Below, piece after piece: positions 3,700 to 48,391 of a DNA stretch of 64,000 nucleotides (within the stretch, counting starts at the first letter, position 1; every line of letters starts with the position of its first letter). Origin of the DNA: an uncultured Methanosarcinales archaeon. Its GTDB lineage: Archaea; Nanobdellota; Nanobdellia; Woesearchaeales; JABIAG01. The stretch spans positions 16,717 to 80,716 of the forward strand of contig CAZLQZ010000004.1 of NCBI GenBank assembly GCA_964561995.1, read 5' to 3'. The translations under genes and the position numbers were made by a program. The notes below the pieces were generated by a model. That model ran no database searches. It had not been told where the DNA came from and saw only the letters and a list, made by a program, of their open reading frames with translations.

Positions 3700-4596
3700 C
3701 TATTGAAAATTCATAGTAATAAATGGTCCCGAGAGGTTATTAATTGCGACAATTAAATTTAAACAGTGATGACTCAATGTTCCTTTTTCTTTTACTAATT
3801 GTCTACCTGTTTTAGTTAATTCTTTTCTTTTATCATAGAAAATTTTCCATTTATTATTATCATATTTGTAAAATAATTCATAAAATAAACTTAAAAATTT
3901 ATGAGTCTCTCTGAAATATTTTATTGAATTCTCTTCAGGTTTTTCGCCATCTAATAAATCATCAATAATATATTTGTATATATCACAAATGGCTTCAATT
4001 TCTCTTACTATTACATAATATAGGTTTGTTTTTGAATTGTCTTTGTATCCGTTTTTATTTAGAATTCTTAAACAAAACATACTTACTTTATTATTCTCTT
4101 TTTCTAATTTTCTTACTTCTTTTAAGTCAATTTTTTCTCCATTGAAGTATAATTGTATGGATAATGATATCTCTTTTGTTAAAAGAAAACATTTTCTTAA
4201 CATTGTATCAAATTCATTTTCTAATACTGCTGCAACATTTTTAATAATGCAGTAATCTTCTTCTTTTTCAACAATCTCAAATCCTAATAGGTCTATTTTT
4301 CTTATTTCGTTTAATATTTCATTATCTTTGAATTTTATTTTTATTTCATCATATCCTTTCATGTATGCATCACCAAGATATCTTTTGTCAAATACTTGAT
4401 TTTCAACGTCTAATAGAATTTTTTGTTTATTTGATTCTTTTTCATTAGTAATTAATAATTTACTACCTTTATCAATTACTTCAACTTCTGAACCTTTTAT
4501 TATATTATTTTTATTTGCCCACTCAATAGGCAATGAAACAACTAATGTTTTTACTGAAAGTTGTATGACTTTTCTTTTCATATCTTCTAGAATCAT
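3700..4596 (-). CDS. Putative regulator: SpoVT/AbrB-like N-terminal swapped-hairpin plus a helical (PhoU-like?) C-terminal domain
   Basis: N-terminus VIQLSVKTLVVSLPIEWANKNNIIKGSEVEV resembles AbrB/MazE DNA-binding domains; the rest is helical; a palindrome-rich divergent promoter lies upstream. Confidence 0.3.
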   Translation of the reverse strand: MILEDMKRKVIQLSVKTLVVSLPIEWANKNNIIKGSEVEVIDKGSKLLITNEKESNKQKILLDVENQVFDKRYLGDAYMKGYDEIKIKFKDNEILNEIRKIDLLGFEIVEKEEDYCIIKNVAAVLENEFDTMLRKCFLLTKEISLSIQLYFNGEKIDLKEVRKLEKENNKVSMFCLRILNKNGYKDNSKTNLYYVIVREIEAICDIYKYIIDDLLDGEKPEENSIKYFRETHKFLSLFYELFYKYDNNKWKIFYDKRKELTKTGRQLVKEKGTLSHHCLNLIVAINNLSGPFITMNFQ

Positions 4597-7120: not shown

Positions 7121-7775
7121 TTTCTTTTTTAATTATTTCAATTAAATCATAAAAATGTTCTGCTTCATAATCCGTTTTTAATTTATTTTTTGTTCTGGAT
7201 CCATATTTTGCAAAACAAATCTTAATGCCTGCATTTTTAGCTCCTTTAACATCTGTATCTGGTCTATCTCCTAACATTAGGGCTTCTTTTGCTTTAACAT
7301 TTAATCCTTTAAGTACTTTTTCAAAACCTTTTATGTTTGGTTTATTGGCATCTGCTATTATTATATCAAAAAAAGGAAGAAGTTTCATGGCATCTAATCT
7401 TTTTAATGCCTTTAATTTTGGAGCATCTGAAAGAACTGCAAGTTTAATTCCTTTTTTTATTAAATATATTAAAGTCGGTATAACTGTTGGATATGGTTCT
7501 AAAAATGCACTTTTTATTTTTCTGTAAGCGTTTGTAGCTACAGCAATTTTTATGTCGTCAACTTTATCATATTTAGATAAAAATTCAGTTAACCATTCAT
7601 TACTTTCAATACCAACTTTCCAATATATTTTCATTAATTTATTGTAAGCATCATCAAAATCCATTCTTAAGCCAGCATTAATCATGGCTTTAATAGCAGC
7701 TTCAACTGCTTTTTCCTTCATTGTGTAGAAATCAACTAATGTGTTGTCTACATCTAATATTATTGCTTTTATCAT
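7107..7775 (-). CDS. HAD-superfamily hydrolase (probable start at MIKAIILDVDNTL; the track ORF extends to 7826)
   Basis: DVDNTLV (DxDxT motif I) near the N-terminus; motif III GDRPDTD-like. Confidence 0.6.
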   Translation of the reverse strand: MIKAIILDVDNTLVDFYTMKEKAVEAAIKAMINAGLRMDFDDAYNKLMKIYWKVGIESNEWLTEFLSKYDKVDDIKIAVATNAYRKIKSAFLEPYPTVIPTLIYLIKKGIKLAVLSDAPKLKALKRLDAMKLLPFFDIIIADANKPNIKGFEKVLKGLNVKAKEALMLGDRPDTDVKGAKNAGIKICFAKYGSRTKNKLKTDYEAEHFYDLIEIIKKENGTK

Positions 7776-8360: not shown

Positions 8361-8443
8361 AATATTGAAGAATTGGCGATTATTAAAAAGTTATTTGTAA
8401 TTTCTAAAACTTTATAATAAGTTTAATCTTTTTTTATTTATTC

Positions 8444-8527
8444 GCGGAGGTGGCTGAGTGGTCAAAAGCGCTAGGTTGAGGGCCTAGTTCCTTAGTGGAT
8501 GCGCGTGTTCGAACCACGTCCTCCGCA
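8444..8527 (+). tRNA. tRNA-Leu (anticodon GAG), long variable arm, no intron
   Basis: Acceptor GCGGAGG/CCTCCGC; anticodon stem CTAGG/CCTAG with loop TTGAGGG; T-arm GCGTG-TTCGAAC-CACGT; TATA-like box upstream. Confidence 0.8.
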
Positions 8528-8598
8528 TTAAAATTTTATTTCAAAAAATTTATATACTTTGTTTTTAAATGTATTAAATATATATCAATGAGGTAAAA

Positions 8599-9465
8599 AT
8601 GTTTTCAAGTGAACAATATACGTTAGGAATTCCAATTAAGGAAGATATCTGTAATGAATTACAACAATTAATTTTTTCAATTATTGAAAAAGAACCATCA
8701 ATAGGAATTGATAAAAATACAACACAGAAGATAGAAGTTAAAGGTGAATTTCATATTACATTAGGTGTTTTTCATCCTAGTGCTTTTAAAAGTAATAAAA
8801 GTATGTTTAAGCATATAATTCATTTTTTAAGACAACATAAAAGTGTTTATTCAGAATTGAAAAAAGTGTTTAAAGGAAATGTTTTAATTAAAGGAATTGG
8901 TTTTGCTCATTCTAATAAATTAGTTAATAATGTGAAGGATGCGGATGTTACATATGCTGTTGCAGAATCAAGTGAAGTCAATACAATACGGTCGAAAATT
9001 CATGATTTATTGAGATTCTCAGGTATAGATGAAAAACATTTTATTTTTACAGACCCCCATATAACATTATTTATTAAATCTGGAAAAAAAGATGTTCATG
9101 GAGTAAATAAACCATTAAGAATTCCTTTAAATTCATTTTTAAATAAAAATAAATTAAATTTTAATTTTGAAACAGTAGTTTTTTATGGAACTAATAATAA
9201 GGCAATTGCTACATTTGGACCAAATGTTAAAAGTAAACCTTCAATAAAATTTGGTAAAATTCTTAAGACGAAGATACAAGAAATAAAAAGAAATGAAGTT
9301 AAAAGTGGACCTCAATATAATTGGGGAAATTTATTCAAAGATTTAGAATTTAGAGGAAAGGCTAATGAAATTAAAAATATTTTGATGGATTCTTCAAAAG
9401 GACCAAAAGAATTAGCCAAATTAATGGGTAGAGACATGGGAAAAGTAATGAAATTACTTAAATAA
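8599..9465 (+). CDS. 2H phosphoesterase superfamily protein (LigT/ThpR-like RNA 2',3'-cyclic phosphodiesterase / 2'-5' RNA ligase) with a C-terminal extension
   Basis: Two H-x-T-x motifs (FHITLGVF and PHITLFIK) spaced as in LigT; 288 aa against ~180 aa for canonical LigT. Confidence 0.6.
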   Translation: MFSSEQYTLGIPIKEDICNELQQLIFSIIEKEPSIGIDKNTTQKIEVKGEFHITLGVFHPSAFKSNKSMFKHIIHFLRQHKSVYSELKKVFKGNVLIKGIGFAHSNKLVNNVKDADVTYAVAESSEVNTIRSKIHDLLRFSGIDEKHFIFTDPHITLFIKSGKKDVHGVNKPLRIPLNSFLNKNKLNFNFETVVFYGTNNKAIATFGPNVKSKPSIKFGKILKTKIQEIKRNEVKSGPQYNWGNLFKDLEFRGKANEIKNILMDSSKGPKELAKLMGRDMGKVMKLLK

Positions 9466-10312: not shown

Positions 10313-10372
10313 AGTCTGCTCAATCAAAACCTTTATAAAATGCATAAAAATTTTATATATAGGTGATAAACA

Positions 10373-10795
10373 ATGCCAATCATAGGAACACATTTTACAA
10401 AAATTAATGTTGAAAACAAAAGAAAAGGTATGAGAAACTTAAAAGTTAACAATAATTTAGGAATTTCTAATATCGAAAAAATGGACTTAGAACTAGGAAG
10501 TGCAAAACAAAGTGGTGTTAGATTCGTTTTTGAATATACTACAAAATATGAACCTGATGCAGCAGAAATGATTTTTGAAGGCGAAGTTCTTTTTATTGAA
10601 GATGAAAAGAAAGTTGCTGAAATTTTAAATAATTGGAAAGATAAAAAACCAATTGATGATGATATTATGGCAAGAGTTATGAATTCTGCTTTAACTAAGT
10701 CTACAATTAAAGCTTTAAGTCTTTCTCAAGATATGAATCTGCCAGCTCCTGTTAAGTTGCCAAAGATTACTAAAAAAGAAGAAGCTAAGCAATAA
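10373..10795 (+). CDS. Hypothetical protein upstream of CDC48
   Basis: 140-aa ORF with an RBS-like context. Confidence 0.35.
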   Translation: MPIIGTHFTKINVENKRKGMRNLKVNNNLGISNIEKMDLELGSAKQSGVRFVFEYTTKYEPDAAEMIFEGEVLFIEDEKKVAEILNNWKDKKPIDDDIMARVMNSALTKSTIKALSLSQDMNLPAPVKLPKITKKEEAKQ

Positions 10796-10828
10796 GCTTT
10801 TTAAATTCTTTATTCTTTTATTTATAAT

Positions 10829-13696
10829 ATGAAAAAAGAAGATGTAACTTTAAAAGTTGCTGAAGCAATTCAGGATGATGTTGAAAAAGGAATTGTTCGT
10901 ATAGATTCTGCTTTTATGAAAGATTTAGAAGTTAATCCCGGAGATGTTATTGAAATCGAAGGAGAAAGAAAAACTTCTGCAATTGTTGATCGTTCTTATC
11001 CAGGTGATATTGGTTTAGATATAATTCGAATGGATGGTTTAATTCGAAGAAATGCTAAGACCGGTTTGGGTGAGACTGTTAAAATTAGAAAAATTGACGT
11101 TAGGGAAGCTAAGAAAGTTACAATTGCTCCTGCTAAAAAGGGAATTGTTGTAAGAGCTTCTCCTGTAACATTTAAAAGAGGTTTATTGGGAAGGTCAGTA
11201 GTTAAAGGTGATATTGTTTCTTTGGGTGGAGTAAGAAGAAGAAAAAATGCAATGAGTGATAATCCTTTTTTTAATGAAATATTTTCAATGCAAGAAGAGA
11301 AATTTGGAAACTTTTTTGCAGATTTAAAATTTATTGTTGTTGCAACAGATTCAAAAACACCAGTAATAATTGGTGAAAATACAGAAGTTACTATTAATCC
11401 TGAATCAGTCGAGATTTCAGATGAAACTGTTCCAGATGTTTCTTATGAAGATATTGGCGGGTTAGATGATGAATTGAAAAAAGTAAGAGAGATGGTAGAA
11501 TTACCATTAAAACATCCTGAAGTTTTTGAAAGATTAGGTATTGAACCTCCTAAAGGGGTGTTAATGCATGGTCCCCCTGGAACTGGTAAAACTTTGCTTG
11601 CAAAGGCTGTAGCTAACGAAACTAATGCTCACTTTATTTTAATTAACGGTCCTGAAATAATGTCTAAATTTTATGGGGAATCTGAAGCAAATTTAAGAAA
11701 GAAGTTTGAAGAAGCTGAAAAAAATGCTCCTTCTATTGTATTTATTGATGAAATTGATGCAATTGCTTCAAAAAGAGAAGAAACTCATGGTGAAGTTGAA
11801 AAAAGAGTTGTTGCTCAATTATTGGCAATAATGGACGGTTTACAATCTAGAGGAAAAGTAATAGTTATTGCTGCTTCTAATATTCCTCACGCTTTAGACC
11901 CTGCGTTAAGAAGACCTGGAAGATTTGATAGAGAGTTAGAAATTGGTGTTCCTGGAAAAGATGCAAGACTTCAAATTTTAAAGATTCATACTAGAAATAT
12001 GCCATTAAAAGGCAGTTTGTATGCTGAAAATATTAAACCATTAGTTCTTGATGAAATAGATGTCAAAATTAAAAATATTAATCTTCAAACAATTAGTAAA
12101 GAAGAAATGTTAAATCAAAAAGAAGATAAATTAAAAGGGCTTAATAATGAACTTGAAAATTCTAAAAAACAAATTAATGATTTACAAAAACAAATCAGTT
12201 CATTAGATATAGAAAAAGAAACATCAGACCAAAGTATGATTTACAAGATTTTAGATTCAATAAAAAGGCTTACTAATCAAAAGTCAAGTTTAGAAAAAGA
12301 AGTTCAAAATTTTAAAGAATCAATTGATGAACAAGAAAAAGAAATAAGTAAAATTAAATCAGAAATTGAAGATTTCAAATCAGGCATTATTAAAATTGAA
12401 AATGTTTTAGTAGAATTAAAAGAAGATAAATCCAAAATTAATGATTTAACAAATGAGATTATTGATTTAGAAGTTAGTGTTAGAAATCGTAGTTTATCGG
12501 ACCCTAGAGGTTTAATTTCTCAAAATAAAATTAGTGAATTATATCCAGTTCTTATGTCACATAATATAGTTTCCTTAATCTTGGACAAAGCAAGTCAAAA
12601 AGGAATTGTTAAAGATTTAGAGTCAATTTCAGAAATTACTCACGGTTTTGTTGGAGCAGATGTTTCAGCATTAGCAAAGGAAGCCGCTATGACTGTATTA
12701 AGAGAAGTATTTCCAGATATTCAAAATAAAGAAGAGGATGAAGCTATTCCAAGAGATGTTCTTGAAAAATTATTTATTACAAAACAAGATTTTTATAATG
12801 CTTTAAAAGTTGTTAGACCGTCAGCAATGAGAGAAGTTTTAGTGGAAGTTCCATCTGTTAAATGGGAAGATGTTGGTGGATTAGAAGATGCAAGACAAGA
12901 ATTACTTGAAGCTATTGAATGGCCATTAAAAAATCCTGAAGCTTTCAAAAGATTAGGTATTAGTCCTCCAAAAGGCGTATTGTTATATGGTCCTCCTGGA
13001 ACTGGTAAAACTTTACTTGCAAAAGCTGTGGCAACTGAAACACAAGCTAATTTTATTTCAATTAAAGGTCCTGAATTATTATCCAAATGGGTTGGTGAAT
13101 CTGAAAAAGCAATAAGAGAAATTTTTAAAAAAGCAAGGCAAACTTCACCAACAGTTATTTTCTTTGATGAAATTGATTCGATTGCTCCTGGAAGAAATCA
13201 ATCTTCAGAATCAAGTGTTACTCAAAGAGTTGTTAATCAATTGCTTACTGAATTAGATGGTTTAGAAGAATTACACAATGTAGTTGTTATTGCAGCAACT
13301 AATCGTCCAGATATAATGGATGCCGCATTATTAAGACCTGGAAGATTTGATAGAATTTTATTAACTCCTGTTCCGGATAAAAAAGCAAGGTTGAAGATAT
13401 TTGAAGTTCATACTAAAGAGATGCCTTTAAAAGATGTTAATTTAGATATTTTAGCCGATAAAACAGATGGTTATGTTGGAGCTGATATTGAAGCGATTTG
13501 TAGAGAAGCTGCAATTATTGCATTAAGAAAAAGTATGGATGCTAAAGAAGTTACTTTTGAACATTTTGAAAAAGCATTAGAAAAAGTTCATGCTTCAGTA
13601 AATAAAGATATTCAAGATTCTTATGAAAATCTTGAAAAAAATTTCAGGATGAAAAAAGCTAAGGAAATTAACGAATCTGTTAATTATATGGGTTAA
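10829..13696 (+). CDS. cdc48: CDC48/VCP-like AAA+ ATPase (N domain plus D1 and D2) with a ~210-aa coiled-coil insertion in the D1 lid
   Basis: Two Walker A (GPPGTGKT) and Walker B (DEID) boxes; SRH regions; N-terminal double-psi barrel. An insertion sits between HTRNMPL and [19 protein letters not shown]. Confidence 0.9.
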
Positions 13697-14416: not shown

Positions 14417-15135
14417 AACTTTTTGAATTAATTGAATTTTTAAATAATGAATTAGATTTATCTATTGAAGATAGTTCTAATAATGGATTACAAGTAGGTA
14501 CTGATAAAGAAATTAAAAAAATAGGTTTTGCAGTTGATGCAAATTTAGAAACTTTCAAAAAAGCTAAAGAAAACAAGTGTGACTTGTTAATTGTTCATCA
14601 TGGAATAAGTTGGAATGATTCTTTAAAACATATTACAGGAAATAATTATGATAGGGTTGGTTTTTTAATTGAAAATAATTTAGCTTTAGTAGCTTATCAT
14701 TTGCCATTAGATTGTCATAAAGTTTTAGGAAATAATATTCAAATTGCTCAATTATTGGGTTTAAGAAAAGTTAAACCTTTTGATGTTGGTTTTGTTGGTG
14801 AGCTAAGACAAGATTTAGATCCTGAAACAATGTCAAAAGCATTAGAAAATATATTGAAAACAAAATGTAAAAATTTATTTTATGGTAAAAATTTAATTCA
14901 TTCTGTAGCGATTATTTCCGGAGGAGCGGGAAGAGATATTGAAGATGCTTCTAAAATTGCAGATTGTTTTATTACTGGTGAAATTAATTATGGTCATGAA
15001 ACAATAGCTAAAGAAGTTAAAATAAATGTAATTGTTGCAGGCCACTATGAAACTGAAACTTTAGGTCTAAAAGCTTTGATGAAATTTTTGAATAGAAAAA
15101 CTGATTCTGAATTGGTTTTTATAGAATCATATTAA
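14413..15135 (+). CDS. NIF3/YqfO family metal-binding protein
   Basis: LIVHHGISW and AYHLPLDCH motifs of the dinuclear-metal NIF3 family. Confidence 0.7.
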   Translation: MKLFELIEFLNNELDLSIEDSSNNGLQVGTDKEIKKIGFAVDANLETFKKAKENKCDLLIVHHGISWNDSLKHITGNNYDRVGFLIENNLALVAYHLPLDCHKVLGNNIQIAQLLGLRKVKPFDVGFVGELRQDLDPETMSKALENILKTKCKNLFYGKNLIHSVAIISGGAGRDIEDASKIADCFITGEINYGHETIAKEVKINVIVAGHYETETLGLKALMKFLNRKTDSELVFIESY

Positions 15136-15224
15136 GTTATTTATTAATGATCTTTTTATAAATCTAGTATGTATTTTAAAGTCTACGAAAGCTTATAAGC
15201 AAATTTTTATTAAATTTAATTAGG

Positions 15225-17180
15225 ATGCAGGCAGACGAAATACTAAAAAGGCAAATTTCTGAGGGAGTTATGCGTATGCAAGTTAACGACCCTAAATATG
15301 ATGGATTGGTTTCTGTTATGAGGTTACTTGCTTCTAATCATAAACTTTCTCGAGATCCTGAAATAAAATCTTTTTTAAGAGATATAGGGGAGCCAACTGT
15401 TGATCATTTAAGAGTGGGTTACCTAGACCCAGTAAGACATTATTTAAGAGAATTAGGACATGAAGAAGTTTTAATTCCTGAAGTAAGAGAAGTAAAAGAA
15501 CTTGAAGAAAGGGTAAAAGAATTAGAATTAGTTAATGCAGATTTAAAAACTAAATCATTATTAAATATTTCTTCAAAAGATGGGAAAAAAGTTTTACCTT
15601 TAAATTCAGGACTTGAAAAATCAAGTGGAAGTTTATCATCAAATCTTTCTGATTCATTAGATAAAAGAGTTTTTGGCGAAACTAATAGTGTAAATGGCGG
15701 GGAAAATAATACTGAATCTGGGAATCAAACTAAAACTGGTTTTAGGTTTGCAAAAGCATTAGCAGAATACGATAATCATTCTTTTCAATCTGCAAGAACA
15801 GTTGGTGCTTTAGAGCATCATGGTTACTTAAAAAGGGATGGTAATGATTATTTTACTGATGAGTCGATTAAAAAAGTTCAAAACTACATGAAAGATAAAA
15901 CTTATTTTTGTGAAGTGGTTGATAAATTGAGTGAAACTTTTGGTTTATCAAAACCATCTATAAGAAACAAAGTTGATGATTTTTTAATTAATCGAGGTAA
16001 AGGTACTAATTCAATATTGGTTTTTGAAGGTACTGTTGATGAATTAATAGAAAAATCAAAAAAGAATTCTTCAACTCCTATAAGTAAAAGTAAGAAAACT
16101 GTTCAAGATGTAAATTCTTCAAAACCAACAATTACTTTTGATTATATTTTAAAAGAAAGATCTGATGTTGTTCCGTGTATTACTTATTTGTGTAAAATTG
16201 TTAGTGCAGGAAATTTAATTAGAGTGGGTATGGGTCTTATCGATAAGGAATCTTTTGAAGATTTTGCGCAAAAAAGAAGTAATTATACTTATCTTAAGGA
16301 TTCTATTAATTTATTTGCTAAAGATGTAAGGTTTGCACAACCAAGAATTAAATCCATTTTAAGGGAATCAAATTTAGTTGAAAATATTGGAACTGAAGGC
16401 AAAGGTGGAGTTGAATGGTATGAAAAAATAAAAGAAGGTGAGATATTATTTAGACTAAGAAGAGAACCTCAACAAAAAAAGAAATTATATTTTTATGAAG
16501 ATGTCAAATCTGTTTATAATAGTAATGAAGATTTATTTTTCGATGTTAATGCTGTAAGAGCTATGGCAGATTTTGATATTTTAAAAACTAATGAAAAGGG
16601 AGAAATTTTAACTGATTCTGTCAAGTCACTTAATCGTGCATTTATATTCTCTGAATATCAATATATTACGTTAGAAGAAATTGCAAAAGAAACTGGATTA
16701 GAAGGTTTAACCGAAAATGATTTAGGAGAGGCAAGAAGGTATTTGGCACAAGTTGCCCAAATTAATGGAAATCCTGTTTATGTTGTAGAAAAGAATAATA
16801 AAGACGTAGTAATTAATTTATGTTCTAAAGACTTATTATATTCAAGTAAAGAAAATATTATTTCTTCATTAAATCCTTGGGAAGAAGATAGTAATATGTT
16901 TGGACATCGGTATGCTTTAGCTGCCCAAGCAATAAAAGAAGGTATTTTTGATATGCCTGTTTATCTAGGTTTTAAAGAACAATTTGAATCTGCAGTTAAA
17001 GCTTCAGGAAGTGATTCTGTTTTTGCATTGTTTATGGGTGCTGGCAGAAAAGCTGGAATTCCGGATTATAGAAAATTACAATGTTCTATAAATGATATTC
17101 AAAACAGTCCTCACGCTCATGATACCATACTTCATTTTCTCGAGAATTTGGATGAGAAGGTTCAACCACAAGTGAGTTAA
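15225..17180 (+). CDS. Large orphan protein (651 aa) with a sigma-70 region-1.2-like motif and a region-4.2-like HTH start
   Basis: LDPVRHYLRELG resembles the conserved sigma-70 region-1.2 segment (recalled E. coli form DPVRMYMREMG); ITLEEIAKETGL resembles the start of the region-4.2 HTH; the rest is unrecognised. 3' end overlaps the convergent sigma gene. Confidence 0.5.
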   Translation: MQADEILKRQISEGVMRMQVNDPKYDGLVSVMRLLASNHKLSRDPEIKSFLRDIGEPTVDHLRVGYLDPVRHYLRELGHEEVLIPEVREVKELEERVKELELVNADLKTKSLLNISSKDGKKVLPLNSGLEKSSGSLSSNLSDSLDKRVFGETNSVNGGENNTESGNQTKTGFRFAKALAEYDNHSFQSARTVGALEHHGYLKRDGNDYFTDESIKKVQNYMKDKTYFCEVVDKLSETFGLSKPSIRNKVDDFLINRGKGTNSILVFEGTVDELIEKSKKNSSTPISKSKKTVQDVNSSKPTITFDYILKERSDVVPCITYLCKIVSAGNLIRVGMGLIDKESFEDFAQKRSNYTYLKDSINLFAKDVRFAQPRIKSILRESNLVENIGTEGKGGVEWYEKIKEGEILFRLRREPQQKKKLYFYEDVKSVYNSNEDLFFDVNAVRAMADFDILKTNEKGEILTDSVKSLNRAFIFSEYQYITLEEIAKETGLEGLTENDLGEARRYLAQVAQINGNPVYVVEKNNKDVVINLCSKDLLYSSKENIISSLNPWEEDSNMFGHRYALAAQAIKEGIFDMPVYLGFKEQFESAVKASGSDSVFALFMGAGRKAGIPDYRKLQCSINDIQNSPHAHDTILHFLENLDEKVQPQVS

Positions 17181-18531
17181 TATTTTCTAATGGTGTTGTT
17201 GAATTATTATCTTCAGGCAATAATGATAATTTTTTTGCAATAAAATAAATTCCTTCATATTCAGTTTGTTTAACTTCTTCTTCACTCCAATTAAGTTGAG
17301 AAGCAGTTTGCTTATAATCTTGGTTTTCAACATAAAGTTTATCTAAAACTAATTTTTGTTTAACATCATAAATTAAATCGATTGTTTCTTCAAATTGATC
17401 TAAACCATCTAATTCAGATAAAATTTTATATAATAAGTCGTTAGTTGGGTCAACAAATTTTATTTCTCCTCTTTTAAATCTTTGATAATCTGTTTTCCAA
17501 TTTTGTTTAGTTATTTTTGAAGGAGTTTTAATTTCTTTTGATTGTTTTGTTGTACTAATAATTGTTTCTAAATTTTCAGTTTTTTTAACAACTTTTTCTT
17601 TTAATAATTTTGTTTTAGTTTTTTCTCTTTTTTTATGAAGATAATCAATTTTAACAATTTTTCCTTTTGTTTCAATAGGTATAATTGGAGAAAAATCTGT
17701 TTCTTTTTCATAATCGGTTGTGTTTTTATCCATTAATCTATTAAGCTCGGAAAGTGCTTTTTGTTGTAGTTGTCTTACTCTCTCTCTAGTTCTTCCGATT
17801 AGTTTTGAAACCGATTCTAATGTTTTTGGTTCTTGTCCATTAAGGCCAAATCTATGAGTTAAAATTAATCTTTCTCTTTTCTCTAACTTTGGTAATAATT
17901 TGCAAGCATTTTTTGCTAATTCTTCTATTTTTCTTCTTTCAAATTCTGGATCTTCTTGTCCTAAATAAATTTCTTCAAAAGTTTTTTTGCCATATTGTTC
18001 AATTGGTGCGTCAATTGATATTGTGGTCGTTTTTATACTTTTTAAGCTTATTATTGTTCTAATAGTATAGCCAGTATATTCTGCTAATTCTTTATCAGTT
18101 GGTTTTCTGCTTAAATCTTCTGTTAAAACATTTTCTGCTTTTCGTATCTTAATAATTTTAGAATTGCTTTGAACTGGAATTCTTACTGTTTTTGCTTGAT
18201 TATTTATTGCTCTTCGCATACCTTGTTTAATCCACCAAGAAGCATAAGAAGAAAATTTAGCACCTTTTGCGGGGTCAAACTTTTCAACAGCTCGTATCAT
18301 TCCAATATTACCTTCAGAAATCAAATCTTGTAAAGGTAATCCTAAACCTTTAAAATTGTGAGCAATTTTAACAACTAATCTTAAATTACTCTCAATTAGT
18401 TTTTCTTTTGCTCTTTTTTCACCTTTTTTAATTCTGGCTGCTAGTTCTACTTCTTCTTCCCTAGTAATTAAAGGAAATCGATTAATCATTCGATAATAAC
18501 TTTTAATTGTATCTCCATTATTAATTTCCAT
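17086..18531 (-). CDS. Sigma-70 family RNA polymerase sigma factor (regions 1.2, 2, 3, 4) with a novel ~200-aa C-terminal extension
   Basis: LVVKIAHNFKGLGLPLQDLISEGNIGMIRAVEKFDPAKGAKFSSYASWWIKQGMRRAI (regions 2.1-2.4) and LESVSKLIGRTRERVRQLQQKALSELNRL (region 4.2) are near-consensus RpoD sequence. Confidence 0.75.
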   Translation of the reverse strand: MEINNGDTIKSYYRMINRFPLITREEEVELAARIKKGEKRAKEKLIESNLRLVVKIAHNFKGLGLPLQDLISEGNIGMIRAVEKFDPAKGAKFSSYASWWIKQGMRRAINNQAKTVRIPVQSNSKIIKIRKAENVLTEDLSRKPTDKELAEYTGYTIRTIISLKSIKTTTISIDAPIEQYGKKTFEEIYLGQEDPEFERRKIEELAKNACKLLPKLEKRERLILTHRFGLNGQEPKTLESVSKLIGRTRERVRQLQQKALSELNRLMDKNTTDYEKETDFSPIIPIETKGKIVKIDYLHKKREKTKTKLLKEKVVKKTENLETIISTTKQSKEIKTPSKITKQNWKTDYQRFKRGEIKFVDPTNDLLYKILSELDGLDQFEETIDLIYDVKQKLVLDKLYVENQDYKQTASQLNWSEEEVKQTEYEGIYFIAKKLSLLPEDNNSTTPLENINSLVVEPSHPNSRENEVWYHEREDCFEYHL

Positions 18532-18615
18532 TTATTTAGTATTTTGTTTGTTGTTTTAAAGATTTTCATACTTAAACAGAAACAATTTTATAGTAGTTAT
18601 TTCATAAAATACATA

Positions 18616-20319
18616 ATGGAAATAAGAAAGAAAGATAGAAAAGTGGCTTATTTCTCAATGGAGATAGGATTAGAGCCAAATATGCCTACTTATGCAGGCG
18701 GTTTAGGTATTTTAGCAGGCGATACTTTAAAGACTTGTGCAGATCTTAATGTTCCTGTTGTTGCTGTTAGTTTGTTATATAGAGATGGATATTTCAAACA
18801 ACATTTGGATTCAGATGGTAATCAAACTGAAAGTCCTGATCGATGGGATTATGATAATAAATTAGAACTTTTACCTGAAAAAGTGGTTGTTAGTATTTCT
18901 GGACGGGATGTAGTAATTCAAGCTTGGCAATATACTGTTAAAGGTTTTACTGAATTTGAAGTGCCAGTATTATTTTTAGATACTAATCTTCCTGAAAATA
19001 CTGATCAAGACCGAATTATTACTCAAAAATTATATCAGGGAGACCATTCAATGAGAATCTCTCAAGAAATTGTTTTAGGAATTGGTGGATTGAAGATGCT
19101 TCAAGATTTAGGTTATAAAAATATTAAAAAGCATCATTTGAATGAAGGGCATGGTAGTTTTTTAATTTTAGAATTACTTAGTGATACAAGACTGCATCAT
19201 GGTAAAAGTGATTTAAGAGAATTGTATGATTTTGAAGAAGTTAAACATAGTTGTGTTTTTACAACCCATACTCCTGTTGCTGCTGGTCATGATCAATTTG
19301 ATCCTCAGTTAGTTAAAGATATTATTGGAAAAAATATTAATTCTGAATTATTAGATTATTCTGTTAAAAATGGTAAAATAAATATGACTCAAATAGCATT
19401 GGCTAATTCTGAATATGTAAATGGAGTTGCAAAAAAACATGCTTTTGTTTCAAAGCAAATGTTTCCAGAACATAAAATTGCTTCAATAACTAATGGAATA
19501 TATTGTCCCTTTTGGGTTCATCCAGGTATGCAAGAACTTTTTGACAAGTACATACCTAAGTGGTTTTTAGACCCAACAGATTTAAGACACGCAATGATTA
19601 TTCCTGATAAAGAATTGTGGAATGCTCATATTAAAGCTAAAAAAGATTTAATTGATTTTGTAAATACTAAATATAATTCTAATTTAAGTCCTGATGTTTT
19701 TACTATTGGATTTGCAAGAAGAGCTGCTGAATATAAAAGAGTTGAATTATTATTTTCTGATATTAAAAAATTAAAATCAATAGTAAAAAAGGTTGGAAAA
19801 ATTCAAATTGTTTTAGCAGGAAAAGCTCATCCTCAAGATGGTGGAGGAAAAGGTTTAATTAAAAGAGTTTTTGAAAAAATTAAAGAATTAAAAGGTTTAA
19901 TAGAAATTGTTTATTTAGAAAATTATAATATTGAAATTGCACAAAAAATGGTACCAGGTGTTGATATTTGGTTAAATACTCCATTAAAACCAAGAGAAGC
20001 TTCTGGAACAAGTGGAATGAAAGCTGCCCTAAATGGAGTTCCTCAATTTAGTATTTTAGATGGTTGGTGGATTGAAGGTTGTATTGAAGGTTTAACTGGA
20101 TGGAGCATTGGAACTAATGAAAAGGAAAGCAATTGGGATGAAGATGCAAAAGATCTTTATGATAAATTAGAAAAAGAGATTCTTCCTATTTTTTATAATA
20201 AAAAAAGTGAGTGGAGAAAAATAATGAAATACTCCATTTCATTTAATGCATCTTATTTTAATACTCATAGAATGGTTAAGGATTATGTTCTTAATGCTTA
20301 TTTTATTGAAAGTGAATGA
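18616..20319 (+). CDS. glgP: Alpha-glucan (glycogen/maltodextrin) phosphorylase, short archaeal GT35 type (start taken at the internal MEIRKKD)
   Basis: EIGLEPNMPTYAGGLGILAGD at the N-terminus and EASGTSGMKAALNGVPQFSILDGWW (PLP-lysine region). Confidence 0.8.
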   Translation: MEIRKKDRKVAYFSMEIGLEPNMPTYAGGLGILAGDTLKTCADLNVPVVAVSLLYRDGYFKQHLDSDGNQTESPDRWDYDNKLELLPEKVVVSISGRDVVIQAWQYTVKGFTEFEVPVLFLDTNLPENTDQDRIITQKLYQGDHSMRISQEIVLGIGGLKMLQDLGYKNIKKHHLNEGHGSFLILELLSDTRLHHGKSDLRELYDFEEVKHSCVFTTHTPVAAGHDQFDPQLVKDIIGKNINSELLDYSVKNGKINMTQIALANSEYVNGVAKKHAFVSKQMFPEHKIASITNGIYCPFWVHPGMQELFDKYIPKWFLDPTDLRHAMIIPDKELWNAHIKAKKDLIDFVNTKYNSNLSPDVFTIGFARRAAEYKRVELLFSDIKKLKSIVKKVGKIQIVLAGKAHPQDGGGKGLIKRVFEKIKELKGLIEIVYLENYNIEIAQKMVPGVDIWLNTPLKPREASGTSGMKAALNGVPQFSILDGWWIEGCIEGLTGWSIGTNEKESNWDEDAKDLYDKLEKEILPIFYNKKSEWRKIMKYSISFNASYFNTHRMVKDYVLNAYFIESE

Positions 20320-44025: not shown

Positions 44026-44769
44026 ATGGGGGCAAAGAAAACAATTAAGGACTTAAATAGGAGCTTAAAAAATTCTTTTTCTAGAATTAAAGAAGATGTT
44101 GTTTCATTAAAAAAAACAAGAAAACAATTATCTAAAGAAGTTAATAATCTTAATTTAAAACAAGTTGAATTTGATAAGGATGTTGCAAAAAATGAAGATA
44201 TTCATAAAATGCAATTGAAAGTTGAAAATATTGCCTATGAACAAAAATCTATAAAGGAATTTTCAGATATTCTTGCTTTTTTGAAAAAAGAGTCAGTTAT
44301 GAAAAGAGAATATGATAGGGCTCATAATAAAACTAAAAATGAAGTTAGTTCTTTGAGAAAAGAAGTTGATAAAATTAAAAAATCAAGAGATATAGTTAAA
44401 GAAGCAAGAGTAATTCAACTTGAAAAGAGTTTAATGAAAATTGATGATGTTAAAAAAGAAATTTTAGACGATGTAAAAAGAAAGTATTTGACTGCAGAAG
44501 AAGTGGCAGCAGAAATAAATCCTTTGAAAAAAGAGTTTTTAGATCTTTATAATAAAGTTAACAAAGTTACTAGGGAAGTATTATCTTATCCTAAATTGAA
44601 GTTTTTTGGTGATGTAATGTTATTAATTGCAATAATTAGTTTAGCGGGTGCTGGAATATCATTATATTTTAATTATTACTTTGCAGCTAATTTTTTGGGT
44701 ATAGAAGCTTTGATATTTTTCATTATTGGAATTATTGTTATGTTGATTCATAAGATGAGTATTAGGTAA
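44026..44769 (+). CDS. Coiled-coil protein with a C-terminal TM anchor, hypothetical
   Basis: Heptad-rich; tail MLLIAIISLAGAGISLYFNYYFAANFLGIEALIFFIIGIIVMLI. Confidence 0.45.
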   Translation: MGAKKTIKDLNRSLKNSFSRIKEDVVSLKKTRKQLSKEVNNLNLKQVEFDKDVAKNEDIHKMQLKVENIAYEQKSIKEFSDILAFLKKESVMKREYDRAHNKTKNEVSSLRKEVDKIKKSRDIVKEARVIQLEKSLMKIDDVKKEILDDVKRKYLTAEEVAAEINPLKKEFLDLYNKVNKVTREVLSYPKLKFFGDVMLLIAIISLAGAGISLYFNYYFAANFLGIEALIFFIIGIIVMLIHKMSIR

Positions 44770-44802
44770 AATTTTTAAACTATTCTTTAATTAATTGTAT
44801 TT

Positions 44803-45054
44803 ATGTATGATTTAGAGCTTGAAAAAATAATAAGTAATATTAAAAAGGAAAAAGCTAAACTTGTTTGTATTCAATTGCCTGATGGTTTAAAACCTAAAGC
44901 AAATGAGATTCAAGAAGCAATTGAAAGTAAAACTGATGCTAAAGTAGTTATTTGGTCTGGTTCTTGTTTTGGTGCATGTGATGTACCTTTAGAATTAAAG
45001 AGTTTGAAGATTGATTTAGTTGTGCAATTCGGTCATAGCGAATTGGTAAGGTAG
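44803..45054 (+). pseudogene. dph2: N-terminal fragment (83 aa) of diphthamide synthase Dph2, terminated right after the conserved GHS motif
   Basis: KLVCIQLPDGLKP...SGSCFGACDVPLE...VQFGHSELVR* matches the Dph2 N-terminus (IQxPxGL, GACD, GHS). About 260 aa of the expected protein are missing. Confidence 0.6.
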
Positions 45055-45150
45055 CCTGTAAACCTCTAGAAAGTTTGTAATTAAATAACTACTGGTCACT
45101 GGACAAGTTCTCACATAGAGTATTTAAATGAATTTCAATTTTAATATTGT

Positions 45151-45921
45151 ATGAAATTTAATTTAAACAAAGTTGAGTTTAGTAAAAATGACTTAAGAAA
45201 AGGAATAAAGATTCCAACTAAACTAACGAAAGAACTTGCTCATTTTATAGGAATTCATATGGGTGATGGTCATTTGAGTAAAAGGAAGAATGGATATAGA
45301 ATTTGTTATTCTGGTCATTGGATTAATGAATTGAATTGGTATCAAAATTATCTTTTTGTTTTGATTAAGAACTTGTTTAATAAAGAAGTTGGTCCTGTTA
45401 AAGGACATGATTGTGTTCAAATAAATATTAATTCTAAAGCTATTCATTTTTTTTTTAGTAAAGTGTGTGATTTACCAGTGGGATCAAAGTCTAATTGTGA
45501 TTTTCTAAAATTTATTAAAAATGGTTATTTATCTATTAAAAAAGCTTTTTTGAGAGGATTTGCCGATACTGATTTTTCATTAGTTTTTAAAAATCGACAT
45601 AAAAATATCAATTATTATCCTGTTATTGATTGTGCTATTTCCAATAAAGTTCTTAGAGATTCACTTGTTAATTTAATTGAATCAATTGGTTTTAAAGTTT
45701 ATTCTAATGAAAGATTGAGAAAAAGAAAAAATAAAGTTAATGCTTCTTATTATTTTCAAATTAATGGAGTTAAAGCAATTGAAAAATGGATGAAGGAAGT
45801 AGGTTTTACTAGTTATAATCAACTGACAAAGTATTGGCTTTGGAAAAAACAAGGTTTTGTTCCTTCAAAAACAAATATTAATTACAGGTTAGAAGTATTG
45901 AAAATAAGTTTAATAAAATAA
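45151..45921 (+). CDS. LAGLIDADG homing endonuclease (double-motif), free-standing, in the same frame as the dph2 fragment
   Basis: LAHFIGIHMGDGHL and LRGFADTDFS are the two LAGLIDADG motifs; 256 aa. Confidence 0.7.
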   Translation: MKFNLNKVEFSKNDLRKGIKIPTKLTKELAHFIGIHMGDGHLSKRKNGYRICYSGHWINELNWYQNYLFVLIKNLFNKEVGPVKGHDCVQININSKAIHFFFSKVCDLPVGSKSNCDFLKFIKNGYLSIKKAFLRGFADTDFSLVFKNRHKNINYYPVIDCAISNKVLRDSLVNLIESIGFKVYSNERLRKRKNKVNASYYFQINGVKAIEKWMKEVGFTSYNQLTKYWLWKKQGFVPSKTNINYRLEVLKISLIK

Positions 45922-45925
45922 AATG

Positions 45926-46027
45926 CGCCCCCGACCAGATTCGAATTCACCGTGACTTTCTTGCAAAAATCACTCTGGTGACCTTGCGGTTAACAGCCGC
46001 ACGCTCCACCTACTGAGCTACGGAGGC
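45926..46027 (-). tRNA. tRNA-Asn (anticodon GTT) with a ~29-nt non-canonical intron in the T-arm
   Basis: Minus-strand GCCTCCG-TA-GCTC-AGTAGGTG-GAGC-G-TGCGG-CTGTTAA-CCGCA-AGGTC-ACCAG-[AGTGATTTTTGCAAGAAAGTCACGGTGAA]-TTCGAAT-CTGGT-CGGGGGC-G. Confidence 0.55.
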
Positions 46028-46131
46028 ACATTACATTGGATTTTTAAACGCTTTATAAAATTTTCTGTAATTTAGAAAGAAATTGGTTTTTTTAATTAAA
46101 TTTATAAATTAATTTATCTAACTATTTGTTT

Positions 46132-46830
46132 ATGACTAAATTTGGCATTATTGGAGCAATGGATGATGAAATTGAAATGTATTTAGAATATATTCAAGAT
46201 AGAAAAGAAACTAAATGGAACATATTTACTTTTTATGAAGGTAAGTTTCAAAATCACGATATTGTATTAGTTAAATCTGGCGTTGGAAAAGTATTTTCTT
46301 CAATGGTATGTCAACATCTTATTGATGAATTTAATCCCGATATGATACTTTTCACTGGTGTTGGAGGCTCATTAAACAAAGAACTAGAAATTGGCGATGT
46401 GGTTGTTGGTGTTGATTCTGTACATCACGATTTTAATGCAATTCCTTTGGGTTTTAAAAGAGGTCAAATATCTTATACTGATTATAGATTTTTCAATGCT
46501 GAACAAAAATTAATTGATTTAGCTTTTAAAACAAAATTAGAAAAAAATAAGATTATAAAGGGAAGAATTCTTACGGGGGATCAATTTTTTACACAAAAAG
46601 ATAAAGCAGAACATAGTTATTTGGTTGAAGAACTTAAAGGAGACTGTATTGAAATGGAAGGTGCAGCAGTTGCTCAAGTATGTAATATTAACGAAGTGCC
46701 ACATTTAATTATTAGAACTGTTTCTGATAAGGCAGATGGTACTGCAGTAGAAGATTATAATAATTTCAAATCAATTGTTGCAATGAATTCTTTTAAAATT
46801 GTTGAAAATATTATTAAAACTTTTTTATAA
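46132..46830 (+). CDS. mtnN: 5'-methylthioadenosine/S-adenosylhomocysteine nucleosidase
   Basis: FGIIGAMDDEIE start; VGGSLN; C-terminal IEMEGAAVAQVC. Confidence 0.7.
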   Translation: MTKFGIIGAMDDEIEMYLEYIQDRKETKWNIFTFYEGKFQNHDIVLVKSGVGKVFSSMVCQHLIDEFNPDMILFTGVGGSLNKELEIGDVVVGVDSVHHDFNAIPLGFKRGQISYTDYRFFNAEQKLIDLAFKTKLEKNKIIKGRILTGDQFFTQKDKAEHSYLVEELKGDCIEMEGAAVAQVCNINEVPHLIIRTVSDKADGTAVEDYNNFKSIVAMNSFKIVENIIKTFL

Positions 46831-47351: not shown

Positions 47352-48101
47352 ATGAAACAAGATATTGAAGAAATAATAAAACAAGGAAGAATAGATAAGT
47401 GTTGGAAAGATTTAACTTCTCAAAGCACTTTTGGTGTTTCTAAAGAAGAAGCATTTTGGTTGAATGACATTTTAAGAAATGAAGAAATTAAGCAAGTTTA
47501 TGAACAAACTCAAAAAGAAATTTCTGGATATGATATTTTAAGTGAAAATACGTCTTATCGTGCAGAAACAATTGATGTTAATGGACAAGGTTCATTTGTT
47601 CCAAAATTAAATGTTACTGAATCAAGAAGAAAAAATAAACACCTTTATTCTGGAAAAAGAAGAAGTCCAAAACAATACGACCCAACTTTAAAAAGAAAAT
47701 TTGTTAGAACAGAAGACCAAGTTTATGCTGCAGCTAGAGATATTGTTAAGGGGCATTCAAAACCTGATGATTATTTGTTGGTTAATGGTGCTGCAAACTT
47801 TAGACAATTAATGTTAACTGCAGAAAAAAAAGGAAATTCTATGGATTCAGATTTGGCACTTAATTGGTTAAAAGGTTATATTGATTTAAGAAAACAAGAA
47901 GTAGCTAAACCATTAAGAAACGTAGGTAGTAAAAATGGCTCTCTTCAAAGAAGACCTTTTGGTAAAGGTTATGCTAATGCAAAATTAGAAAGTCAAGATG
48001 ATCTTTTTGAAAAACGTTTGCCTGCTGGTACTGTTAAACCTCAACCAATAGAAGCTGTTTCTTCTTATAACGGTGTTTTTGGTCATAGTTGTAGGATTTA
48101 A
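47352..48101 (+). CDS. Hypothetical protein
   Basis: 249-aa ORF with an SD-like GGAGGGA upstream. Confidence 0.4.
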   Translation: MKQDIEEIIKQGRIDKCWKDLTSQSTFGVSKEEAFWLNDILRNEEIKQVYEQTQKEISGYDILSENTSYRAETIDVNGQGSFVPKLNVTESRRKNKHLYSGKRRSPKQYDPTLKRKFVRTEDQVYAAARDIVKGHSKPDDYLLVNGAANFRQLMLTAEKKGNSMDSDLALNWLKGYIDLRKQEVAKPLRNVGSKNGSLQRRPFGKGYANAKLESQDDLFEKRLPAGTVKPQPIEAVSSYNGVFGHSCRI

Positions 48102-48279: not shown

Positions 48280-48391
48280 GGCCCTGTAGCATAGTCTGGT
48301 GGTGCGCACGACTGATATATTGGTTTCCTGATATTCGGGAAAGCTAATGACCGAAATCGTGAGGTCCGGAGTTCAAATCTCCGCGGGGCCA
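48280..48391 (+). tRNA. tRNA-Ile (anticodon GAT) with a ~38-nt intron at the canonical 37/38 position
   Basis: GGCCCTG-TA-GCAT...GTGC-G-CACGA-CTGATA[intron]A-TCGTG-AGGTC-CGGAG-TTCAAAT-CTCCG-CGGGGCC-A. Confidence 0.7.

Follow-up and report, generated by a model that had tools for sequence, protein, structure and literature searches.

A probable half-gene for Dph2 and an adjoining LAGLIDADG gene beside tRNA-Asn in a Woesearchaeal genome

The stretch of archaeal DNA analysed here (the window: 64,000 nucleotides of contig CAZLQZ010000004.1, assembly GCA_964561995.1, positions 16,717 to 80,716, of Woesearchaeales lineage in GTDB) carries an 83-codon open reading frame (ORF) for the N-terminus of the diphthamide synthase Dph2 (2-(3-amino-3-carboxypropyl)histidine synthase), followed by an ORF for a LAGLIDADG protein and by a tRNA-Asn gene. 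The locus is probably composed of the N-terminal half-gene of a split Dph2 (dph2-N) and an unrelated LAGLIDADG gene that is tied to tRNA-Asn. The Dph2 N-terminus appears to be a real and widely conserved half-gene, whose "truncated" look would be the normal state in its clade, and it is by coincidence that truncation and endonuclease are linked at this locus. It is proposed that Dph2 of Woesearchaeota and related Nanoarchaeia would be split into two genes directly after the GHS motif, the first encoding an N piece of ~83 aa with the first [4Fe-4S] cysteine and the second a C piece of ~210-250 aa with the LGC and CPR cysteines; the two polypeptides would presumably reassemble into the enzyme. 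The Dph2 split as such is already known and has been published for DPANN archaea, and the tRNA link of the endonuclease is a modest new lead.

The N-terminal domain of Dph2 as a stand-alone gene

The dph2-N ORF runs from an ATG at 44803 to a TAG stop at 45052-45054 (83 codons). Its product contains the first iron-sulfur (Fe-S) cysteine within GSCFGACD and ends in ...VVQFGHSELVR, four residues beyond GHS. Homology to the Dph1/Dph2 domain (PF01866, TIGR00322, arCOG04112) is found: the product matches positions 1-58 of 302 in Pfam Diphthamide_syn PF01866 (E 7.7e-14; 52 bits, cut-off 33) and positions 1-83 of 320 in TIGR00322 (E 3e-23), and it aligns with residues 6-86 of the solved 337-aa Dph2 6Q2D (E 7e-17). 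A complete single-chain Dph2 has three domains and three Cys ligands, of which dph2-N supplies the first Cys only. In an alignment of 32 N-terminal pieces there are 22 invariant columns, and the 83-aa protein of the window retains every one of them. The stop-bearing locus is assembled with 100% identity in ENA ERZ27316330 and in Logan SRR8526173; because the same sequence is present in two other public assemblies, the stops are no one-off assembly error. These features indicate that positions 44803-45054 hold an intact gene under selection and no debris.

A search of 5.8 billion proteins returned 1,918 clusters homologous to dph2-N. The best 120 of the 1,918 are 82-121 aa long, are 64-77% identical, come from Woesearchaeota/Nanoarchaeota metagenome-assembled genomes and end 1-20 residues past GHS, with a mode of 3-4. 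Among the best 150 representatives at 50% clustering, 82 have a length of 130 aa or less, and 24 are full-length Dph2 proteins at ~39-51% identity. The gene, of 82-90 aa and always ending shortly after GHS, is encoded in at least 531 GTDB species genomes (Woesearchaeota/Nanoarchaeia), so that a fixed break point and a lineage-wide stand-alone N gene, as in the split Dph2 of DPANN, are both found here. A break point that is constant over hundreds of species, together with strong conservation, points to a selected split gene and not to a recent insertion. The genes 3' of dph2-N vary by genome and include EamA transporters, rpiB and unknown ORFs; no endonuclease adjoins dph2-N in the relatives' loci examined. 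Collected loci are designated here by L and a number. The gene rpiB (LacAB_rpiB) is often located 3' of dph2-N (L020, L023, L027, L033, L034, L050, L068 and L082), and a gene for a small acidic protein lies upstream of it in L004 and L026.

The C-terminal half of the split enzyme

No coding sequence for the Dph2 C-terminus was found in the 64-kb window by tblastn, a motif scan and a custom hidden Markov model (HMM) of the C-terminal domain, which agrees with the preliminary description of this DNA, where no downstream dph2 exon had been seen. A scan for the LGC...CPR motifs and the custom HMM likewise detected no C-terminal half within ±10 kb of 80 dph2-N genes. A displaced 3' exon was considered and rejected: the weak downstream tblastn matches to a P. 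horikoshii Dph2 query, in the window and in 88 loci, were rpiB genes and hence false positives, which fall on the middle domain of Dph2 and are mistakable for such an exon. A profile search with the C-terminal regions of full-length DPANN-like Dph2 returned full-length proteins only.

The C-terminal genes were reached through the genomic context of a more distant N piece of 89 aa (L090/L091), whose gene is overlapped by 7 nt, in a different frame, by a gene for a 244-aa Diphthamide_syn protein. With this protein as the query, 186 C-terminal-only proteins were retrieved; the 120 of them that were listed are 207-276 aa long, with CPR present in 117 and GHS in none. The sources of the C-only proteins are labelled Woesearchaeota, Pacearchaeota and Nanoarchaeota. 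The C-terminal gene carries the remaining two Fe-S cysteines, in the LGC and CPR motifs, and a C piece aligns with residues 95-308 of 6Q2D, complementary to the N piece with its residues 6-86. The three cluster cysteines of PhDph2 are reportedly supplied by three domains, as Zhang et al. are said to have found in 2010; if the cysteines come from three domains, both Dph2 pieces would be needed.

The N and C genes were found together wherever both were visible (L090/L091, L096, L108 and L109), and solitary dph2-C genes, flanked by genes for glutaredoxin and a flavin adenine dinucleotide (FAD) protein, are present in L092-L095. The adjacent pairs look like snapshots of in-place gene fission. The likely history would be fission in place at the domain boundary and later dispersal by rearrangement, with the window representing the dispersed state, and we infer that a partner dph2-C gene lies elsewhere in the window's genome. 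The C-terminal gene P0492, considered as the partner from the window's own samples, was ruled out because it derives from different samples.

A LAGLIDADG gene beside an intron-bearing tRNA-Asn gene

The spacer behind dph2-N contains three further stops in the dph2-N frame (after PVNL, KVCN and ...EFQF), four in all with the stop at 45052, and the LAGLIDADG ORF then follows in the same frame, with its own ATG at 45151 and its end at 45921 (C-terminus ...KISLIK). The preliminary description had this arrangement right, as well as the 83-codon Dph2 N-terminus ending just after GHS and the minus-strand tRNA-Asn gene followed by mtnN. The 256-aa product contains both LAGLIDADG motifs (FIGIHMGDGH and LRGFADTDFS) and matches Pfam LAGLIDADG_3 (PF14528) with 23.3 bits (cut-off 22.5). 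Six relatives at 29-65% identity (L097-L102) were found in a scan of Joint Genome Institute (JGI) metagenomes. PF14528 is matched by 6/6 family members (best E 2.7e-12), the motifs FIGIHMGDG and LRGFADTD are conserved in the six relatives, every member keeps the acidic residues of GDG and TD in the two motifs, and the family profile matches the endonuclease domain of PI-PfuI (1DQ3, E 2.8e-4) and those of VMA inteins. With two motifs, the acidic residues and the profile match, the protein is a putative homing endonuclease. The ORF in L099 carries a +1 frameshift. Viral contigs also encode distant LAGLIDADG relatives (23-25% identity), and there the genes have no tRNA beside them.

The endonuclease is neither an intein nor intron-borne. 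The ORF comes after four stops and starts from an ATG of its own; no Cys or Ser follows the junction, the C-terminus is not His-Asn, positions 45151-45921 have no Hint or intein Pfam match, and there is no downstream extein. The intein splicing blocks A, B, F and G, for which the preliminary description had advised a check around the gene, are missing. None of the six relatives (0/6) has dph2-N within 4 kb. The endonuclease gene has no meaningful direct or inverted repeats at its flanks, and the 3' end of the tRNA is not duplicated in an att-like manner. Elsewhere, L076 encodes a 1,159-aa ORF with a LAGLIDADG-like segment (16011-19490, +), presumably an intein-bearing host protein. An Rfam RT-16 RNA (8435-8608, -; 82.9 bits) in L102 adjoins an ORF (7181-7693, -) with a reverse-transcriptase-like YVDD motif and shares its contig with a distant endonuclease relative.

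The spacer seems to hold the promoter of the endonuclease gene. The motif ACTGGTCACTGGACA is located at 45091-45105 and is followed by a TATA box, TATTTAAAT, at 45121-45129, 22 nt before the ATG, which is the spacing expected of a leaderless archaeal mRNA. The same module, CACTGGACA ... TATTTAAA, is also located upstream of the endonuclease relatives in L099, L101 and L102. The CACTGGACA motif is seen once in the window against 0.11 expected occurrences; the module occurs in 23 of 109 loci, where the motif often takes the overlapping form CACTGGACACTGGACA and lies ~10-12 nt upstream of the TATTTAAA box. An endonuclease-specific role of the motif was considered and rejected, as it also precedes host genes, for example that of the small acidic protein in L004 and L026, and the module is probably a clade-wide transcription-factor site or one like the transcription factor B recognition element (BRE). 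Apart from tRNA, an Rfam scan of 44700-46200, which includes the spacer, gave no match. At several loci (Table 1) a conserved leader of ~35 nt, with the sequence ACGCAAAACTGCCAAATAATGCTTTTCGG or a variant of it, stands between the CACTGGACA promoter and a nuclease ORF, the ORFs being of different families; the leader has no Rfam family. In L028 this leader occurs twice beside tRNA genes with no ORF after it, and these ORF-less leaders may be decayed cassettes.

The tRNA-Asn(GUU) gene, which a default ARAGORN run overlooks and Rfam detects, is tail-to-tail with the endonuclease gene across a gap of 4 nt. In 7/7 family loci (the window and L097-L102) the ORF is likewise tail-to-tail with an opposite-strand tRNA gene, with a gap of 0-25 nt or an overlap, and every locus has a different gene at the other side of the ORF; chance adjacency to a tRNA gene would be a few per thousand per locus, at ~45 tRNA genes per megabase. 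The tRNA genes beside this family carry one to three introns and are tRNA-Asn(GUU) in the five closer loci. In the window, the T-arm, the part of tRNA-Asn nearest to the endonuclease ORF, holds the intron, which is inserted between tRNA positions 53 and 54, and the same position is occupied in L097, L098 and L100. In the minimum-free-energy (MFE) fold, the intron junctions form a bulge-helix-bulge (BHB) motif with a 4-bp CACC/GGUG helix and the 3-nt bulges AG|A and AA|U; the outer helix is weak and the motif is of the relaxed type. The mature T-arm is predicted to be ACCAG-UUCGAAU-CUGGU. An equivalent helix is found in L097, L098 and L100, where exon and intron 3' end have changed in a compensatory way. 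A T-arm intron is present in four of the five tRNA-Asn genes beside the endonuclease family (window, L097, L098 and L100), versus 0/10 of those not adjoining it, which are all the others in the Woesearchaeal loci collected; several of these ten carry D-loop or anticodon introns. The tRNA-Asn gene without a T-arm intron is that of L099, the locus with the frameshifted endonuclease. A tRNA-Asn gene is located within 1 kb of dph2-N in L011, L016, L076 and L083. As tRNA-Asn is thus a loose neighbour of dph2-N in the clade, a tRNA-attached endonuclease gene ends up beside dph2-N, and the endonuclease gene appears to belong with the tRNA-Asn gene at its 3' end and not with dph2.

The association of intron and endonuclease suggests collaborative homing, which is known for the cyanophage psbA gene and F-CphI, where the intron protects the resident allele (PMC6083498). 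The likeliest mode of action of the endonuclease would be to cut tRNA-Asn genes in which the T-arm has no intron; in the resident tRNA gene, the target would be interrupted and thereby shielded by the 29-nt BHB-type intron, and intron and endonuclease gene would be co-converted into the cut alleles. The intron-less T-arm, ACCAG-TTCGAAT-CTGGT, is a pseudo-palindrome of the kind recognised by LAGLIDADG enzymes, and the intron-less tRNA-Asn sequence reads ...AAGGTCACCAG before and TTCGAATCTGGTCGGGGGCG after the intron junction. No intron-less copy of the T-arm target is found in the 64-kb window. The endonuclease gene is immediately beside the intron-bearing gene, the adjacency that collaborative homing entails. 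It is possible, though short of probable, that the LAGLIDADG gene and the T-arm intron form a collaborative-homing pair and that nuclease cassettes at the side of Woesearchaeal tRNA genes could drive the gain or retention of non-canonical introns. The mechanism of archaeal tRNA intron transposition has been described as unknown (PMC4090602); an endonuclease coupled to a T-arm intron would, if the proposal is true, supply a DNA-level mechanism for the gain and retention of non-canonical tRNA introns in archaea.

Cassettes beside Woesearchaeal tRNA genes comprise two LAGLIDADG families and a helix-turn-helix (HTH) plus PD-(D/E)XK-like ORF, and some share the promoter/leader module. L061 encodes an unrelated 278-aa double-motif LAGLIDADG ORF (19013-19849, -) with an N-terminal HTH and the motifs YVGLWMGDGT and LLGLVLSDGYL, and the DNA for the C-terminus of this ORF runs antisense to a tRNA-Asn gene (18958-19047, +), over its T-arm and acceptor stem. 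In L011, an HTH protein of 272 aa, in which a PD-(D/E)XK-like motif was recognised by eye, is encoded at 10445-11263 (+) directly after dph2-N and a CACTGGACA promoter; its ORF overlaps the 5' end of a tRNA-Asn gene (11249-11351, +) whose sole intron is in the 5'-proximal D-loop. A truncated homologue of this HTH protein is encoded upstream of the tRNA-Asn gene of L022 (12633-13109, +). L061 and L011 hint at wider nuclease cassettes flanking tRNA genes.

Among the other features of the window is a second intron-containing tRNA gene (48280-48391, +), apparently tRNA-Ile(GAU) from a manual reading of the anticodon, with an intron of ~38 nt at the canonical position; ARAGORN overlooks this gene too. 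The 130 nt upstream of it have a G+C content above that of the surroundings and contain hairpins, and the preceding 249-aa ORF (47352-48101) has no Pfam match. A 955-aa CDC48/AAA+ ATPase (10829-13696, +) carries an insertion of ~220 aa between the first AAA core and its lid, which is a predicted coiled-coil with weak Crescentin/ATG16 matches and no intein.

Table 1. Locations of the features in the window and in related loci (L numbers)
Feature	Location	Strand	Basis or remark
dph2-N, 83-aa N-terminal domain gene	44803..45054	+	Pfam PF01866, TIGR00322, 6Q2D alignment, homologue clusters
Intergenic spacer, non-coding, with putative endonuclease promoter	45055..45150	+	Sequence; module shared with relatives
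Free-standing double-motif gene for a putative LAGLIDADG homing endonuclease, 256 aa	45151..45921	+	Pfam LAGLIDADG_3, family profile
tRNA-Asn(GUU)	45926..46027	-	Rfam tRNA 47 bits, T-arm insertion
tRNA-Asn exon 1	46027-45975	-	Manual parse and MFE fold
tRNA-Asn intron (29 nt)	45974-45946	-	Manual parse and MFE fold
tRNA-Asn exon 2	45945-45926	-	Manual parse and MFE fold
mtnN-like gene	46126-46830		PNP_UDP_1 (Pfam)
Endonuclease/tRNA loci	window 45151-46027; L097 4001-4944; L098 62-613; L099 3977-4898; L100 4001-4939; L101 156-983; L102 3992-4850		
CACTGGACA promoter module	window 45091-45129; L099 3946; L101 70-85; L102 3896-3920; L004 5174; L011 10251-10279		Also in L014, L019, L026, L028, L045, L085
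ACGCAAAACTGCCAAATAATGCTTTTCGG leader	L011 ~10330-10365; L045 ~19280; L085 ~1500; L097 ~3875-3900; L100 ~3880-3910		
ACGCAAAACTGCCAAATAATGCTTTTCGG leader	L028 ~15110-15150 and ~15900-15940; L061 ~19930	-	
Adjacent dph2-N and dph2-C	L090 823-1820		7-nt overlap
Adjacent dph2-N and dph2-C	L096 2716-3741		Same frame, TAG then ATG directly
Adjacent dph2-N and dph2-C	L108 2236-3244		
Adjacent dph2-N and dph2-C	L109 2231-3208		

Alternative explanations and known systems

The preliminary description had offered several explanations for the short dph2, among them a split gene whose C-terminal half is elsewhere, which is the one favoured here by the conserved break point, the stand-alone C genes in the clade and the literature. 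Another was that a homing endonuclease or intein had invaded an intact dph2 and destroyed it; on this view the 83 codons would be what is left of the 5' exon or N-extein, and the spacer a decayed intein or intron. The endonuclease ORF does start within 96 nt of the fragment and in its frame, and LAGLIDADG enzymes are characteristic of inteins, whose endonuclease domains the family profile resembles. However, hundreds of genomes hold this 83-aa gene, ending at the same point, without an adjoining endonuclease, the relatives of the endonuclease are never beside dph2, the window holds no downstream extein or exon, the intein junction residues are absent, and the spacer is a conserved promoter module free of coding remnants that gives the endonuclease gene a promoter and start of its own; such an invasion is very improbable. 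The chance is practically negligible that the locus is one continuous ORF whose stops arose by errors of sequencing or assembly or are recoded, a reading for which the shared reading frame of the two ORFs could be adduced; frame sharing is a 1-in-3 coincidence and so carries no information, whereas four separate stops, identical sequence in independent assemblies, a spacer with a TATA box and no coding similarity, and homologues that stop at the same place in hundreds of genomes all speak against it. A third suggestion, that the N piece is all that remains and that Dph2 and diphthamide have been lost, leaving the 83-aa protein as a pseudogene or in a new stand-alone role, is improbable. It could draw on the failure to find the C-terminal half, dph5, dph6 or EF-2 (elongation factor 2) in the 64-kb window and on the loss of diphthamide synthesis documented in other archaea (PMC6143161), but the window is a small part of the genome and absence there means little; moreover, every family-invariant residue is kept, including the Fe-S cysteine, related genomes hold solitary C-terminal genes, and the N and C genes co-occur as described above.

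For the LAGLIDADG protein, collaborative homing has to be weighed against a role as a domesticated DNA- or RNA-binding factor (a regulator or a splicing helper) for the tRNA gene, or against homing to an intergenic site 3' of tRNA genes with the intron unrelated, which we consider rather unlikely. The tRNA-Asn genes of L061 and L099, which are beside a LAGLIDADG gene and have no T-arm intron, are in its favour, and LAGLIDADG folds have been domesticated elsewhere, as in WhiA and the mitochondrial maturases. However, the catalytic acidic residues of both motifs are kept in all family members, the far-side context differs at every locus as for a mobile cassette, and one copy is frameshifted (L099), which fits the decay cycle of homing endonucleases; for the splicing of BHB introns the endonuclease of the host suffices, and a maturase is not required.

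Several observations weigh against the split-gene and collaborative-homing interpretations themselves. The 83-aa piece scores 64.7 bits with TIGR03682, the Dph2 equivalog model, which is below the cut-off of 202.8, and the C-terminal half was not found in the window. For the endonuclease, AlphaFold gave no usable single-sequence model (predicted local distance difference test score, pLDDT, of 42). The correlation between intron and endonuclease comprises five loci that are not phylogenetically independent, L099 would turn into a counter-example if its frameshift were an assembly error, and the LAGLIDADG gene beside the intron-less T-arm in L061 is of a different family. If dph2-N is the half-gene of a split Dph2, an 83-aa Dph2 match in Woesearchaeota/Nanoarchaeia would be neither a pseudogene nor a sign of diphthamide loss, the adjacent and dispersed arrangements would form a natural series for the study of how the gene of an Fe-S enzyme is split at a domain boundary, and Dph2 would be unsuitable as a single-copy marker in these lineages; Narrowe et al. 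(2018, Genome Biology and Evolution, PMC6143161) advise against Dph2 as a marker gene.

With the single-chain archaeal Dph2 enzymes (3LZC/3LZD, 6BXM and 6Q2D), which have a [4Fe-4S] cluster of the radical S-adenosylmethionine (SAM) type, the window's protein shares homology, the first cluster Cys and GHS; the solved enzymes have 327-378 residues and three cysteines, whereas the window locus encodes the first ~25% only. There is also a likeness to the two-gene Dph1/2 of DPANN, with one gene each encoding the N-terminal and the C-terminal domain (Narrowe et al. 2018, PMC6143161), and to Dph2 of the nanoarchaeote Nst1, listed as split (Nst 222-440) by Podar et al. (2013, PMC3655853), in that a small N-domain gene is separate and a second gene encodes the C domain. 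Those studies state only that the split exists, and it is added here that the break is 1-20 residues after GHS, that the N piece of ~83 aa corresponds to residues 6-86 of 6Q2D and occurs in at least 531 species genomes, and that both adjacent and dispersed arrangements are found. The endonuclease resembles the archaeal intron- and intein-encoded LAGLIDADG enzymes (2DCH, a putative homing endonuclease; PI-PfuI, 1DQ3; VMA) in its double motif and profile similarity, and differs from them in being free-standing and very divergent, since its best PDB match (E 2.8e-4) is obtained with the family profile only. I-DmoI is a further archaeal intron- or intein-encoded enzyme of this kind. With the cyanophage psbA/F-CphI system, the window shares a free-standing endonuclease gene beside a gene whose intron appears to accompany the endonuclease gene; in that system, however, the nuclease is of the Endo VII type and the intron is a group I intron in a protein-coding phage gene, whereas the pair proposed here would consist of a LAGLIDADG nuclease and a protein-spliced BHB intron located in the T-arm of a tRNA, on an archaeal chromosome.

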